Virus record (IMG/VR): IMGVR_UViG_3300043432_000238
Span: 1 to 64,000 of that record
DNA: 64,000 nucleotides
Source: a virus
Lineage: Duplodnaviria > Caudoviricetes
Reading direction: 5' to 3' (one strand)
In this document: piece by piece, positions 1 through 9,616 of the stretch
Layout of the letters: each line of letters opens with the position of its first letter
Numbering within the stretch: the first letter of the stretch is position 1
Made by a program: the position numbers and the translations under genes
The notes under the pieces: model-generated
Databases searched by the model: none
What the model was told of the DNA's origin: nothing
What the model saw: only the letters and a program-made list of their open reading frames with translations

Positions 1-5
1 CCTAG

Positions 6-704
6 CGTCCCCCTCTACGCGCTCGGGACGACCTCGTAGTCGTTGTCGGGGTCGCGGCACATCGTCCGTCCCCCTCTACGCGCTCGGGACGACCGTTGGC
101 GCCAAGATCATGAAAGTGCCGCCAGGGCGTCCCCCTCTACGCGCTCGGGACGACCGTCGTAGCCATGGGACTGCAGGAAGAGGACATCCGTCCCCCTCTA
201 CGCGCTCGGGACGACCCCTGCGGCGGCCTGCACGCCGAAGCTGCCGTGTCGTCCCCCTCTACGCGCTCGGGACGACCCTGCGCGCGGCCTCCGACAATCT
301 GGCGAGCAAGCGTCCCCCTCTACGCGCTCGGGACGACCTCTAGCCCTGCTCTGTGTCGACCACCAGCAGGACGTCCCCCTCTACGCGCTCGGGACGACCG
401 CCTCCTGCCGGAACCAGTCGGTCAGCGACCGCCGTCCCCCTCTACGCGCTCGGGACGACCTCGGGACATGTACTTTCAAACTGTCCTCCATAACGTCCCC
501 CTCTACGCGCTCGGGACGACCGCAGGCGAGTGGCACTGTGCGCAATCCTTCGGACGTCCCCCTCTACGCGCTCGGGACGACCTATATGAATCGCGAAGCA
601 ACGGCTCGCCCTTGTCGTCCCCCTCTACGCGCTCGGGACGACCTCAAACTGCGCGCTCTTCCTTGGGTGCAACATACGTCCCCCTCTACGCGCTCGGGAC
701 GACC
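6..704 (-). CRISPR. CRISPR array, 12 identical 28-nt repeats and 11 spacers of 33 nt (period 61); probably continues past the left edge
   Basis: CGTCCCCCTCTACGCGCTCGGGACGACC starts at 6, 67, 128, 189, 250, 311, 372, 433, 494, 555, 616, 677 with unique spacers. Minus-strand form GGTCGTCCCGAGCGCGTAGAGGGGGACG resembles type I-E repeats (GTCGTCCCC...). Orientation inferred from the leader, cas2 remnant and promoter to the right. Confidence 0.98.
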
Positions 705-750
705 TCTAGCCGCTAAGCGCCTGATCGCTCTCCACAATGTCAAAGATCAC

Positions 751-957
751 GGTCATCCGAAACACGTAGGGATTCCCCCTTCATAGCCCCGTTCCTCCGA
801 ATCCGGCCGAAGCCCGATCAGCGAAAGAACAAAGCTCCGATGCCCCTGGCTCCCTGGAATTGTGAGAGCACTTACCGACGGGCAGCCTCAGGGCCATCCT
901 ATGACCCAGAGGCGGGATTTAACCACGACCTGGACTGGCCGGGACCGCCTTCGCGAT
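751..957 (-). ncRNA. putative tracrRNA/scaffold RNA with anti-repeat at 751-772
   Basis: Plus strand 751-772 GGTCATCCGAAACACGTAGGGA vs repeat nt 1-22: 15 identities, 5 G>A changes (G-U pairs in RNA), 2 mismatches. Hairpins at 801-818 (C-UUCG-G loop) and 892-906. The 5' end is inferred from the promoter. Confidence 0.72.
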
Positions 958-963
958 AGGTGT

Positions 964-991
964 ATATTTGCTATTTCTTGAGCCTTGTCAA
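964..991 (-). promoter_or_regulatory. putative sigma70 promoter driving tracrRNA/leader/array
   Basis: TTGACA at 991-986, then about 17 nt to an AT-rich -10 (AAATAT/AATATA), resembling the alphaproteobacterial CTTGAC-N17-CTATAT pattern. Confidence 0.55.
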
Positions 992-1250
992 TAGAATTCC
1001 GTCGACTTCATACAAATCTCTGGAGACATCGCCGAGAGAACTGATGCCTATGTCACTGGACGCACTTATGTCCCGCGAGAGCATGACTATGCTTCCGTGG
1101 TTCAGTTCTTTGTGCCAGCGCTCAAGGACATCCCAGAGCCGATTTCTTGCGTCGCGGTTTAATTGCGCACTAACATAAATACTTGTTGAAGCCTCGAGTG
1201 ACGGGCATTATAAGGAATCCGGATCTTTTCCAGTCCGAGACGTCCGCGCA
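971..1250 (-). pseudogene. cas2: type I-E cas2 remnant (frameshifted, N-terminus lost)
   Basis: Frame 1207-971 reads CPSLEASTSIYVSAQLNRDARNRLWDVLERWHKELNHGSIVMLSRDISASSDIGISSLGDVSRDLYEVDGILLTRLKK*, matching the I-E Cas2 pattern LE...VYVS...R.R.W.V...W....GS.VM...LG...R.L.D.DG..L. An upstream frame gives DVSDWKRSGFL. In-frame TAA at 1210-1208; no usable ATG. Confidence 0.75.
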
Positions 1251-3308
1251 TCATGACGTCTCTCCTGCTTTGGCAGTGTGACGATCTTTCAGCAGTTTCT
1301 GCTCATTGCGCGCGGCATTGCGGTTTCGCCGCAGCATCTTGCCGCATGGCTCACCATCTTCCCGCAAGTTGATGCAGCGCAATATCTGGCGGCCATCCTT
1401 CATTTGCGGGTTGAGGCCGCCGCAGCTCGAGCACCGCTGGACGATCTGCTCCGTTGGCGCGATCTCCATATAAGCGGCTGGGCCGCGCAGATCCTCCGCC
1501 TTATATTTGATCGTCGTCTGAATGCGGGCCATCGCGACTCGCCGCATCATCTGCCGAGCCGCCTTCAATGAGCGTCTCTTGCCCTGGTGCTCCGGCCTTT
1601 GCCGCTCCTGCTCCTCGGCATCGGGCTTTTTCATCATCTTCGCCACCTGCATCCTCTGCACGGCGACCACATCGAATGTCCTGACGATTTTCGTCGTTAC
1701 CTGATGTAGCCAGTTTTCGCGCAGGTCCGCATCGCGTCCTTCCAATTCGGCCAGTTTGGCGGCGGCTTCGAAGAAGCCCCGTGATTGGGGAAGCCGCGGC
1801 CGTCCAGGCGTTTTGGAGACAATGCCGCGCGCCGCCTTCTGCTGGTGTCGGCGCTTGCCCGCCGCTGCGCGTTTCTGGATGCGTTTCTTGCGCGCTTCGA
1901 TGGCACGCGCTTGCTTGCGCGCGGTGATCTGGTGCAGAGCAAGCACATTGTCATCGATCGGCGGCATCGTCAGGTCCATCCCGTCGAGCTGGTCCTCACC
2001 GGTCTGGCCGCGATCATCGCACCAGGTGATCGGGATTTTGGCCGCAATCTTGATAGCGGCGGTTCGCCCGGTAAGTGGCAATGGCTCCGGTTGATCGACG
2101 GTCCACTGCACGGACAGATACCAGTCTTCGCCACGTCGCCAGATCCGCGCGCCTTCGCATTTTGGCACCGGCCCCTCGCCGCGCAATCCAGCGCGCACGA
2201 AAGGTGGCAGGCGGCATTCCATCCAGCCGACGCCGTTCGGCAACTTTATGCGTCCGTCGACCTCGCTATCCTTTCCTTTGCGCTGCTTGGCTTTGAATTC
2301 GAATTGCGTGTTGGCGAAATAAACCGAGCCTGCGGCATAGTGGTTCGGCTTGTATTTCGCGAACCCCGTCTTGCGGAATGGCAATCCCGCCGCTTGCTTG
2401 CGCAGTTCGCGGTACATATTCTGAATCGCGCCGTCGAGATCGGCGACTGTTTTCTGCGCCGCATGGGACGGCAGGTCGTCGATCCACCTTGTCAGGCCCA
2501 GTCTTTTCAAACGAGCCATGAGCTTTTGCATCTGATGGACGTCGATGAAAATCCTGGGTTGGTTTGCTTTGAGCAGATCATTATAGACGCCGGACGTCTT
2601 GGCGATCACGGCACAGTCACATGGACCCTCGTGCGCTTGGAGCCAGTCGATAAGCGCGTCCGCTTTATCCGTGATCTGCCTGTCCTTCAACCACTGCAGC
2701 GTATGCTGATGGCTGTGGTCGCAGGCAGCGCTGCGCAATGATTTGCGAAGCCGGCCCAATAGGCTGCGCATCTCGCGTTCCCTGAGCGGCACGCCGATGT
2801 CACGCCACGCCCACATCATCTTTGCCAGCCGTGCCGGATCGAGCGGCTTCGGCATCGCGGCGATCTTAGCCAAGGCGGCCTTGACTTCGTCATGCTCCGG
2901 CGTACCCTTCGGCAACTCATCAAGCCGGGTTTTCAGTTGCTCGCGTTCCTCTTCGCGACCGATGCCGGGTTCCTTGATCCATCCCGGCTCCTTCTTCCAC
3001 GCTCCGCCCTTGCCCTTCGTGCCCTTGCGCCATTTGCCTTCGCGATAGACCGTCTCCGCTGTCGCGAAATCGTTTTCGGCGATGCCGGTCCAGATCTTTC
3101 TCCAGCCGAGCCGCGACCGGCTGTTCTCACCGCTATAAGCGGCTTCCTGCAGCGTCAGCAGCAGATTCCAGAGCTGGATGCAGCGCCGCCGCCAGAGGTC
3201 CATGGTGCGCATTTGTGTCCGGCTCGGATAGAGGCGGCATTTGGTGCCGCGTTTCATCGAGCCAAGCGCATTCGTGGCGCGTTCGTCGCGCGTTTCGGCG
3301 ATTGCCAT
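1251..3308 (-). CDS. nuclease-dead TnpB/Cas12-like RNA-guided protein, 685 aa
   Basis: N-terminal KCRLYPSRTQ...LWNLLL (OrfB_IS605 HTH-like), LPSHAAQKTVADLDGAIQN...GFAKYK, and C-terminal Zn ribbon C626/C629/C645/C655. RuvC-I AAIK420, RuvC-II VAVQ551 and RuvC-III RN662RNAARN all lack the acidic catalytic residues. Confidence 0.9.
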   Translation of the reverse strand: MAIAETRDERATNALGSMKRGTKCRLYPSRTQMRTMDLWRRRCIQLWNLLLTLQEAAYSGENSRSRLGWRKIWTGIAENDFATAETVYREGKWRKGTKGKGGAWKKEPGWIKEPGIGREEEREQLKTRLDELPKGTPEHDEVKAALAKIAAMPKPLDPARLAKMMWAWRDIGVPLREREMRSLLGRLRKSLRSAACDHSHQHTLQWLKDRQITDKADALIDWLQAHEGPCDCAVIAKTSGVYNDLLKANQPRIFIDVHQMQKLMARLKRLGLTRWIDDLPSHAAQKTVADLDGAIQNMYRELRKQAAGLPFRKTGFAKYKPNHYAAGSVYFANTQFEFKAKQRKGKDSEVDGRIKLPNGVGWMECRLPPFVRAGLRGEGPVPKCEGARIWRRGEDWYLSVQWTVDQPEPLPLTGRTAAIKIAAKIPITWCDDRGQTGEDQLDGMDLTMPPIDDNVLALHQITARKQARAIEARKKRIQKRAAAGKRRHQQKAARGIVSKTPGRPRLPQSRGFFEAAAKLAELEGRDADLRENWLHQVTTKIVRTFDVVAVQRMQVAKMMKKPDAEEQERQRPEHQGKRRSLKAARQMMRRVAMARIQTTIKYKAEDLRGPAAYMEIAPTEQIVQRCSSCGGLNPQMKDGRQILRCINLREDGEPCGKMLRRNRNAARNEQKLLKDRHTAKAGETS

Positions 3309-3366
3309 GGTTGGGGCCTCGTCTAGGCTTGTTGAGCTATTGCGGTATGCAGGTTGGGCATGCCTT

Positions 3367-3606
3367 TTAAATCCAGGTCTCTACGATCACGGGGTCATCA
3401 TCGGGAAACCTGCCGATGCAGAAATGCCCGTGTGGAATATCGGCGCGGGCCTGGTCGAGATCGTCGTAGACGCCGCCGATGTCTGCCGAAGTTATTGGTG
3501 TCGTGCTGGACTGCATGACGAATTGCCTGCGAACCACGACATGGTCGGGGAAATCCCGCGGATGATCGTAGACCACCCAAAGCGTCAGCAGCCGGTTCGA
3601 CGTCAT
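3367..3606 (-). CDS. phage hypothetical protein (WVVYDHPRDFPDHVVVRRQ)
   Basis: Start overlaps the upstream stop; typical small phage protein. Confidence 0.7.
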   Translation of the reverse strand: MTSNRLLTLWVVYDHPRDFPDHVVVRRQFVMQSSTTPITSADIGGVYDDLDQARADIPHGHFCIGRFPDDDPVIVETWI

Positions 3607-3890
3607 TGCGTGCCCCGTCGAATCTTGCAGGCGACAGTCAGGGACCGGGGATCGTCCGCACGGCCCGCCGTTGTCGCCATCGCAGTCAGTCCGCAAAGAG
3701 TGCACTTGATCAGCCACGCTCCGCAGCGTGGTGCCGGGTGGCGGAGATCGATTGTGCAGCACGGCGTTTTGCCACCCGTCGCATCGACATCGATGCCGGC
3801 TGGATAGGCCGGGTTTGGTTGCCGCTGTGGCTCGCGGAAGAAGTCGACCCATTCCGCGACGAGGGGACCGCTCGGTTTCGGGGCGGTCAT
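3603..3890 (-). CDS. Cys-rich hypothetical protein
   Basis: Coupled ORF, CxxC motif (CTLC). Confidence 0.65.
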   Translation of the reverse strand: MTAPKPSGPLVAEWVDFFREPQRQPNPAYPAGIDVDATGGKTPCCTIDLRHPAPRCGAWLIKCTLCGLTAMATTAGRADDPRSLTVACKIRRGTQ

Positions 3891-4417
3891 CGCGCGCCCC
3901 TCATCACGTCGTAGATCTCTTGAACCGAGTGTTCCGCCGCGAAGACGCCCTCTTTCGTGCGCCATCCCGTGCCGGTAAGCTGCGGAGGCCAAAGAGTGAA
4001 GCCGCTGCCGCTGCTGTAACGGATCAGCGCGACCAGCCCGCGCCTTTCAATCCAGGCGCGCAGATTCTGGTCCTGGTGAGCGTCAGGATATTTCGGGTCG
4101 CACCAGATCTGCACGATCGGCACGCGGTGCGTCTCGCCCGTCTCGTTATCTTGCGCCGTGATGAATTCCGGCGACGGATCGAGCACATAGTGCGAGCGGT
4201 CAGGCCGGCTGAGATCGCCGGCGTCGTCATTTATCAGCCATCCGCACGACCAGACCCGGCATGGAAACGGGCGCGATGGATAGATCGCACAGCCCTTGGC
4301 GTGGCGCTGGTGCTGGCAGCGCTGATTGCTCGGCTTATTGAACATCGGCGCTGGCATCAGCCGGCAGCATAGTTGGCAGTCGCCGCAGCGGCGTTGGATG
4401 GCAATGGAGTCAGTCAT
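3887..4417 (-). CDS. YkgJ-like CxxCxxCC metal-binding protein
   Basis: RRCGDCQLCC...CxxxxxxxGCAIYPSRPFPCRVWSC motif. Confidence 0.7.
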   Translation of the reverse strand: MTDSIAIQRRCGDCQLCCRLMPAPMFNKPSNQRCQHQRHAKGCAIYPSRPFPCRVWSCGWLINDDAGDLSRPDRSHYVLDPSPEFITAQDNETGETHRVPIVQIWCDPKYPDAHQDQNLRAWIERRGLVALIRYSSGSGFTLWPPQLTGTGWRTKEGVFAAEHSVQEIYDVMRGAR

Positions 4418-6877: not shown

Positions 6878-7225
6878 CTATTCGCTGCCGCCGGCGGAAT
6901 GGCCGAGCGGACCGTTCGGATTGGGATCACGCACGATGGCATGGTTCCAGCAATAGGACGCGATCTCGGTGGGAAGATTGTCCGCGTTGCAGCCGCCTTC
7001 CGCGCTCACGCGCTCATAGGTCCGGCGCGAATGCTCTTCGGCTGCCTTGTCGGTATTGATGACCGGCGCGGGCGCTTCACCCTTCTCCTTCGGGCAGGCG
7101 CCGAAACGAGGCGTGCCGGCGCCGCGCAGATCCCAGTCGCAGGTGGGAGAGGCCCGCTCCTGCGCCATTGCGGAGCTTGCCGAGAAGCCCAGGACCAAGG
7201 CCATCATGATCAATGTTTTGTTCAT
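6878..7225 (-). CDS. secreted hypothetical protein
   Basis: Signal peptide MNKTLIMMALVLGFSASSAMA; RBS GGAGAC. Confidence 0.65.
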   Translation of the reverse strand: MNKTLIMMALVLGFSASSAMAQERASPTCDWDLRGAGTPRFGACPKEKGEAPAPVINTDKAAEEHSRRTYERVSAEGGCNADNLPTEIASYCWNHAIVRDPNPNGPLGHSAGGSE

Positions 7226-9183: not shown

Positions 9184-9616
9184 ATGTCGAGATAAATTTT
9201 CTTAAACTGTGAACGAAATTTCGCACAGCAGTTTTGCCATAAAAATGAAAATTCACGCTTGCCTGTTGAGAATTTGTGGAAATTTCCCGTCTCGACTGAT
9301 CGCCGGCCGGCATGTTCGACGAGAACAATTCATGAACGATATCGGTGCATCCGCAGCGCGAAACGGCGCAAGCTGCTGGTGATCCACTACGACACCGGAG
9401 CCGGCGGCGAGGGCTACTACATGATGCCGGCGCAGATCCGCAGCCATGGTCCTTGGACGGACGGGCGAGAGGGCGAGGTGGTCAATCTGAAGCCGGGATA
9501 CCGGCTGCAATTGGCGCGGCAGAACGATGTGCTGATCGAAGATCCGCCCTATGGCTGGACGCCGGAGGCGTCATAGCGCAGACGCTATTGATGCTGATCG
9601 ATGTCAGCGATCAAAA

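Follow-up and report, generated by a model that had tools for sequence, protein, structure and literature searches.

The question raised by this locus is which protein reads a CRISPR array that has the dimensions of a type I-E array and that lies, on the same strand, beyond the 3′ end of a gene for a Cas12/TnpB-like protein. The window, that is, the whole stretch of DNA that was analyzed, comprises the first 64 kb (64,000 nucleotides) of a virus record of 79,332 nt that is rated 99% complete. A preliminary description of the window had proposed that a tracrRNA is hidden between the gene and the array, and that this RNA ties the array to the TnpB-like protein. We conclude from comparison of related sequences that the minus strand from 957 to 751 very likely encodes a tracrRNA for the adjacent Cas12/TnpB-like protein, which is itself predicted to be nuclease-dead. 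An array that automatic tools would label as an orphan of type I-E is now assigned to the Cas12-like protein, because the structured helper RNA of that protein base-pairs with the array repeats. The features of the locus are as follows.

6 to 704, minus strand: CRISPR array, with 12 identical 28-nt repeats in the window at a period of 61 nt

705 to 750, minus strand: leader proper, 46 nt, with columns that are invariant in the alignment of related loci (A2)

751 to 772, minus strand: anti-repeat, which pairs with repeat nt 1-22 (for example, window 704-683)

751 to 957, minus strand: body of the candidate tracrRNA, approximately 207 nt, between the cas2 remnant and the leader, recognized by profile and covariation

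963 to 968, minus strand: −10-like A/T-rich hexamer AATATA, 17 nt after the −35-like element and 5 nt before helix 1

986 to 991, minus strand: −35-like TTGACA of the candidate tracrRNA promoter, in the 3′ coding end of the cas2 remnant

971 to 1254, minus strand: cas1e-cas2e remnant, approximately the first 19 cas1 codons running out of frame into the distal cas2 portion

1251 to 3308, minus strand: gene for the Cas12/TnpB-like effector, 685 aa, from PADLOC and NCBIfam matches

The array has 28-nt repeats and 33-nt spacers with a period of 61 nt, and its strand is that of the 685-aa open reading frame (3308-1251, minus). It crosses the contig ends and holds approximately 30 perfect repeats in total, followed by 6 degenerate repeats at the far end (genome positions 78077-77719, beyond the window). 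Because the degenerate repeats mark the distal end, the leader is placed at 705-750, with the array being read on the minus strand. Two repeat-spacer units are present at both contig ends, and thus, within the array, the record is terminally redundant or circularly permuted. The six oldest, distal repeats resemble repeat variants in related phages, and the 30 repeats on the leader side are identical. No spacer target was found when both array halves were compared by blastn with 50,697 phage records, when the 214 unique spacers of all arrays were compared with all of the collected loci and with the phage's own genome, or when an exact 22-nt search of IMG/VR was carried out with the newest spacer. 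The targets, therefore, give no inference on activity, and this counts against the tracrRNA reading.

The locus resembles type I-E systems in its 61-nt period, 28-nt repeats, 33-nt spacers and leader beside cas2, and in the Cas1e and Cas2e that its relatives encode. Unlike a type I-E system, however, the 99% complete phage genome lacks Cas7e and Cas6e; neither the Cas7e model (TIGR01869) nor the Cas6e model (TIGR01907) was matched in the 79-kb genome, and neither protein was called in the related loci. The stem formed by the repeat itself is also weak, having 5 bp and a 13-nt loop. Furthermore, the repeats described here pair with a candidate tracrRNA, whereas type I-E systems use none.

The effector gene is followed directly by the cas1e-cas2e remnant, the cas1 start of which overlaps the cas12 stop and the cas2 stop of which is at 973-971. 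The remnant was read against the relatives L001, L002 and L004, which have an intact cas1 (290 aa) and cas2 (100 aa) at the same position. In the close relatives L001, L002 and L003 (85-86% identity), the cas12-like gene is immediately followed by intact cas1 and cas2, and more distant relatives (L004, L064, L065 and others) likewise have intact cas1-cas2, followed by a conserved non-coding stretch and the array. The genes of the relatives scored as Cas1e and Cas2e above the NCBI curated cut-offs (in L001, 4.7e-84 for TIGR03638 and 1.3e-19 for TIGR01873). The out-of-frame fusion of the cas1 fragment to cas2 indicates that the phage of the window has deleted its adaptation module. The array is not a bare type I-E orphan, as relatives carry cas1e-cas2e between the cas12-like gene and the RNA. 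The system in the phage of the window could be decaying after the loss of cas1-cas2, although its 30 leader-side repeats are identical. In L008/L066, no cas1-cas2 is present at all, yet the −35-like hexamer and the RNA are kept.

The product of the effector gene matched the PADLOC model Cas12_x2 (labelled CAS-V-F) over the full length of the model with an E value of 1.4e-192, and the NCBIfam model guided_TnpB with 9e-31. The Cas12f models proper gave 1e-16 or worse, and Cas12_x2, the best PADLOC model, is separate from them. An AlphaFold (AF2) model of the protein, with a pLDDT of 83.7, had TnpB, Cas12m, Cas12f and Cas12p as its top Foldseek matches at 12-17% identity, the best being the TnpB structures 8h1j and 8iaz. 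The three RuvC catalytic positions are replaced in the window protein by K420, Q551 and N662. Among 31 aligned family members, D never occurs at the first position, which is K or N throughout; Q predominates at the second and N at the third, and the zinc-ribbon cysteines are retained. The intact D-E-D triad, the active form of which is one of the features that define V-F, is thus absent from the window protein and, at its first position, from all 31 members, and in this the effector differs from V-F. The effector is a protein of the TnpB/Cas12 fold that very probably has no nuclease activity. A match to DUF2695 (E 1.7e-10; window 2598-2771, protein residues approximately 183-236) sits within an insertion of about 190 aa that is present in only part of the family, and members of 540-580 aa do not have it.

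When a genome collection was scanned with the alignment of the effector protein, only one distant TnpB was recovered, and hence metagenomic and viral contigs are the only place where the family is seen. We found no solved or characterized member of the family, and our literature search found no paper describing the family or its RNA, the V-O, V-P and V-U* groups lying outside this comparison. Nuclease inactivation of Cas12 has arisen repeatedly, the uncharacterized V-U groups number about 40, and Cas12 has gained adaptation genes on at least 12 separate occasions (PMC10691335, PMC12669027). The effector family is probably one of those uncharacterized V-U groups.

We examined the pairing between the non-coding stretch and the repeat. 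The preliminary description had claimed that the minus-strand RNA of 772-751 can pair with repeat nt 1-22, and the pairing is exactly as claimed, with 15 Watson-Crick pairs, 5 G-U pairs and 2 mismatches (20 of 22 positions paired). This anti-repeat is the top match within 705-1250 on either strand and in either orientation of the repeat. It is also the single best match in the whole of the non-array genome on both strands (approximately 154,000 positions), where the next matches have 19 pairs (1 site) and 18 pairs (10 sites). A pairing of 20 of 22 was reached by 1 of 300 dinucleotide shuffles of 705-1250. The RNAduplex energy of the anti-repeat and repeat (−33.8, versus −32.5 ± 2.8 in shuffles) did not discriminate, and it is uninformative because the program permits large loops. 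The fold of the single sequence was only modestly better than that of shuffles (z = −1.66), and the anti-repeat was paired internally in it, a result that counts against the tracrRNA reading. Taken alone, the pairing in the window is suggestive; the decisive evidence is comparative.

One hypothesis that could account for the results from the window is that the region is a mere CRISPR leader holding integration or promoter signals, and that the match to the repeat arose by chance or is a decayed inverted copy without function as RNA. The region does sit at the place expected of a leader, and the Watson-Crick count of 15 of 22 is, by itself, unremarkable, being equalled by 37 of the 300 shuffles. 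A decayed copy, however, would not track changes in the repeats, and the comparison of related loci bears directly on this hypothesis.

Related loci were gathered by means of the effector protein, and the alignment A2 contains 17 non-identical loci, mostly on phage-like contigs. They share one layout, consisting of a Cas12-like gene without the RuvC triad, usually cas1e-cas2e, a conserved RNA of approximately 207 nt, a short leader, and an array with 28-nt repeats and a period of 61 nt. When the best 22-nt complement to the locus's own repeat was sought within 400 nt upstream of the array, it preceded repeat 1 by 39-65 nt in 12 of 13 loci, where it pairs with repeat nt 1-22; the corresponding distance in the window is 46 nt. 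L017, which is the thirteenth locus, and L016 likewise carry the RNA and a matching anti-repeat. An nhmmer profile of the RNA built from related loci gave one match per locus, and all 18 distinct loci that have both the gene and an array contain a single copy of the RNA, always at the same position within the CRISPR-cas locus and outside the array. The sole match in the 79-kb genome was 957-751, with an E value of 4.7e-49 over the full length of the profile. No Rfam family was matched in window 1-4000 at a permissive threshold. A DNA pattern of the invariant tracrRNA columns retrieved 37 stretches from IMG/VR, of which the profile confirmed only 2 contigs, both already known.

Analysis of A2 with RNAalifold identified nine helices with 67 consensus pairs. 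Across the 17 loci, 92.5% of the pair cells are paired, as compared with 39-47% when the partners are shifted by 1-3 columns, and 43 of the 67 pairs show double changes, that is, changes on both sides. None of 500 shuffles reached any of the five covariation measures. Covariation across homologous loci had been named in the preliminary description as a check on the proposed RNA, and the outcome of that check supports it. In the helix formed by the anti-repeat and the repeat (helix 9), 94.1% of the cells are paired and 12 of 20 pairs show compensatory changes; mismatches are the rule at the two positions facing repeat nt 6 and nt 9. G-U pairs exceed A-C pairs by 57 to 5 in this helix and by 127 to 26 overall. 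This excess indicates that both RNAs are read from the cas12 strand, and it shows that the G-U bias that had been noted in the window is real.

These observations contradict the hypothesis of a mere leader. The anti-repeat covaries with repeats that differ among loci, the G-U excess is specific to one strand, and seven further covarying helices are found upstream together with a covarying pseudoknot. We consider it highly improbable that the region is only a leader. Another hypothesis is that the RNA is a decoy, an RNA anti-CRISPR with which the phage sequesters crRNAs of a host type I-E system, and not a cofactor of the phage's own protein. The repeat length and period are I-E-like and are accompanied by Cas1e-Cas2e, and phage RNAs that mimic guide RNAs have been described for Cas9. 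The anti-repeat, however, covaries with the adjacent repeats of the phage itself, and a scaffold of 180 nt is conserved that always occurs together with the Cas12-like gene. Moreover, the pseudoknot has the geometry of Cas12/TnpB guide RNAs. We think that there is very little chance that the RNA is a decoy. The covariation in 17 loci, the ratio of 57 to 5 and the presence of the RNA in 18 loci with gene and array instead uphold the link that had been drawn, by way of a tracrRNA-type RNA, between the array and the TnpB/Cas12-like protein.

The elements of the candidate tracrRNA upstream of the anti-repeat are listed below in the 5′ to 3′ direction; all are on the minus strand.

944 to 957: 5′ hairpin (helix 1), 957-953 with 948-944; 97.5% paired, 2 pairs with double changes

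932 to 935: pseudoknot strand GUCC (helix 2), which pairs with repeat nt 24-27 (GGAC, for example 681-678)

916-914 with 777-775: closing helix, from the RNAalifold consensus

885 to 913: long stem-loop (helix 4), 913-902 with 896-885; 10 of 12 pairs with double changes

841 to 884: stem (helix 5), 884-880 with 845-841; nearly invariant and 100% paired, enclosing helix 6

871-864 with 854-848: inner stem (helix 6); 4 of 7 pairs with double changes

792 to 826: stem (helix 7), 826-823 with 795-792; 4 of 4 pairs with double changes, enclosing helix 8

819-812 with 807-800: hairpin (helix 8); 5 of 7 pairs with double changes

The loop sequence of the 5′ hairpin varies among loci. Two hairpins that had been noticed in the window alone are recovered among the covarying helices of the related loci, the one at 818-801 within helix 8 and the one at 906-892 within helix 4. 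It had also been speculated that a GUCCC sequence near the 5′ end (945-941) pairs with the 3′ end of the repeat. A pseudoknot with the repeat 3′ end does exist and covaries, and RNAalifold found it unprompted; its partner, however, is at 935-932, ten bases away from the proposed position. At 935-932, all 4 pairs change on both sides and 94.1% of the cells are paired. The originally proposed partner, 945-941 with repeat nt 23-27, was rejected: only 71.8% of its cells are paired, many cells are broken, and nucleotides 945-944 belong to the 5′ hairpin. The RNA, therefore, pairs with the repeat at two sites. Pairing of this kind, with the repeat 3′ end beside the guide, has been described as a typical trait of both Cas12 tracrRNAs and the TnpB omega-RNA (10.1101/2025.01.20.633832).

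The RNA had been placed downstream of a TTGACA promoter at 991-986. The hexamer is present, and TTGAC is conserved in position, preceding helix 1 by 34-37 nt in 16 of 17 loci, L008/L066 included; the correction to be made is that it lies inside the coding end of the cas2 remnant. At the same spacing, most loci have an A/T-rich hexamer (often GATATA or GATACA), followed by 5-7 nt to helix 1. The −10 hexamer is a weak match to the sigma-70 consensus. The succession of TTGAC, a 17-nt spacer, an A/T-rich hexamer and 5-7 nt predicts a transcription start at approximately 957, and the start near 957 that had been suggested earlier agrees with where conservation and helix 1 begin on the 5′ side. Two results count against the tracrRNA reading, namely that a consensus promoter scan did not call the minus-strand tracrRNA promoter, and that a consensus terminator scan of the window called no terminator after the anti-repeat and before repeat 1.

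Six of the loci (L001 at 9440-9470, L002 at 6905-6930, L006, L007, L019 and L065) have an insertion directly after the anti-repeat (A2 columns 305-323). Together with the end of the anti-repeat, the insertion makes up a hairpin with a U-rich tract after it, an arrangement similar to that of an intrinsic terminator. The window does not have the insertion.

Three features of the leader are conserved across loci: a motif of the TCTTTGACA type (746-738), which is invariant, an element at 726-714 that resembles an IHF site, and the sequence CTAGAG adjoining repeat 1. To judge from their sequences, these motifs could constitute an array promoter, the terminator tail of the tracrRNA, or signals for integration by Cas1e-Cas2e. 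Type I-E integration employs IHF and leader motifs.

An alternative to a separate tracrRNA is that scaffold, leader and array are a single transcript initiated at the 991-986 promoter, in which the anti-repeat acts in cis, either by folding on repeat 1 to give a natural RNA like a single guide or before being excised later. This is consistent with the close spacing of the anti-repeat and repeat 1 (only 46 nt), with the poor −10 of the candidate array promoter in 746-714, with the lack of a convincing terminator after the anti-repeat in the window, and with the RNAalifold result, in which anti-repeat and repeat are folded together in cis. However, the hairpin and U-rich tract seen after the anti-repeat in six loci argue against a continuous transcript, and the array could have a promoter in an invariant TTGA-containing motif that is located after the anti-repeat and before repeat 1. 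Furthermore, in L011 and L019, where repeat 1 deviates, the anti-repeat fits the array consensus better than it fits repeat 1 (19 versus 15 pairs and 21 versus 19 pairs, respectively), which favors pairing with all of the repeats. We regard the single cis-acting transcript as unlikely, while giving it serious weight, and prefer the interpretation that 957-751 encodes a tracrRNA.

We propose the following mechanism for the tracrRNA and its protein. The RNA would probably be transcribed from a promoter whose −35 element (991-986) overlaps the cas2 end, and would fold into a 5′ hairpin and four stem modules. Its 3′ anti-repeat (772-751) would form an imperfect, G-U-rich duplex of approximately 22 bp with repeat nt 1-22, and its 5′-proximal GUCC (935-932) would form a 4-bp pseudoknot with repeat nt 24-27 beside the downstream spacer. 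The predicted geometry is the standard one of type V and omega-RNA guides, with the scaffold 5′ and the guide 3′. The tracrRNA would pair with the pre-crRNA, the processing of which is probably carried out by a host RNase. The dual RNA would then load the RuvC-dead effector, which may bind matching DNA without cutting it, so that transcription or replication is blocked.

The candidate RNA can be compared with those of Cas12f (V-F), Cas12p (the 'Cas12 hacker', PDB 9jfs) and Cas12k (V-K). As in those systems, a structured scaffold in the range of 150-200 nt is encoded on the strand of the effector gene and the array, in the interval that separates them, with the anti-repeat at its 3′ end and a 5′-proximal pseudoknot that engages the last repeat bases beside the guide, and the effector has the TnpB/Cas12 fold. 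In Cas12p, the pseudoknot is formed between crRNA −1 to −4 and nucleotides 7-10 of a tracrRNA of 185 nt (10.1101/2025.01.20.633832). Unlike the RNAs of those systems, the RNA described here has no sequence similarity to them, as no Rfam match was obtained. The repeat is 28 nt with a period of 61 nt, whereas theirs is 36-37 nt; none of the three RuvC acidic residues is present in the effector, which shares only 12-17% identity with solved Cas12/TnpB proteins; and the adaptation module is Cas1e-Cas2e.

The arrangement of scaffold 5′, guide 3′ and a pseudoknot beside the guide is also that of the TnpB omega-RNA (reRNA). According to the TranC model (Jin et al., Cell 2025, as cited in PMC13565253), the omega-RNA was split into tracrRNA and crRNA. 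In contrast to an omega-RNA, the scaffold and the guide would be separate units here, with a true array and genes for spacer acquisition. In addition, the RNA lies clear of the 3′ end of the effector gene, and neither transposon ends nor tnpA are present.

In its predicted binding without cleavage and in its carriage by mobile elements, the system resembles Cas12m (V-M), Cas12c (V-C) and TldR. Unlike the effector described here, Cas12m processes its own crRNA and is not known to need a tracrRNA. TldR differs in having a single fixed guide and no array, whereas here there is a long array and, in relatives, cas1e-cas2e. Cas12m, Cas12c and TldR are RNA-guided DNA binders that silence without cutting (PMC12669027, PMC11656645, PMC13565253).

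Specialists would expect a small type V system to have a tracrRNA, and the effector family already has a PADLOC model. The new part is the particular family, which is uncharacterized, RuvC-dead and associated with type I-E adaptation, together with its RNA; the tracrRNA layout itself is usual for type V. We tentatively put forward, as a possibility that falls somewhat short of an even chance, that the locus represents an undescribed type V lineage in which a nuclease-dead, TnpB-derived effector reads an array built by captured type I-E Cas1e-Cas2e, with the tracrRNA as the adaptor through which a class 2 protein can use I-E-style repeats. If this is true, phages would possess a heritable, self-updating form of RNA-guided silencing, probably directed against competing elements or host genes. 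In the loci described here, adaptation genes of class 1, together with their repeats, are joined via the candidate tracrRNA to a TnpB-derived class 2 effector, which bears on the origins of tracrRNAs and on the recombination of CRISPR modules on phages. The covariation defines the architecture of the guide RNA, namely scaffold, anti-repeat, pseudoknot and guide orientation, and therefore a single-guide RNA can be designed and the protein directly tested as a naturally non-cutting DNA binder.

We also inspected the region upstream of the cas12-like gene in L001, L002, L004, L063, L065 and L066, and it corresponds to a conserved phage early region. The neighbors there include HTH/Xre and GerE-type regulators and small open reading frames, sometimes with an integrase and RecT. 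The cas12-like gene is often translationally coupled to the small open reading frame that precedes it.
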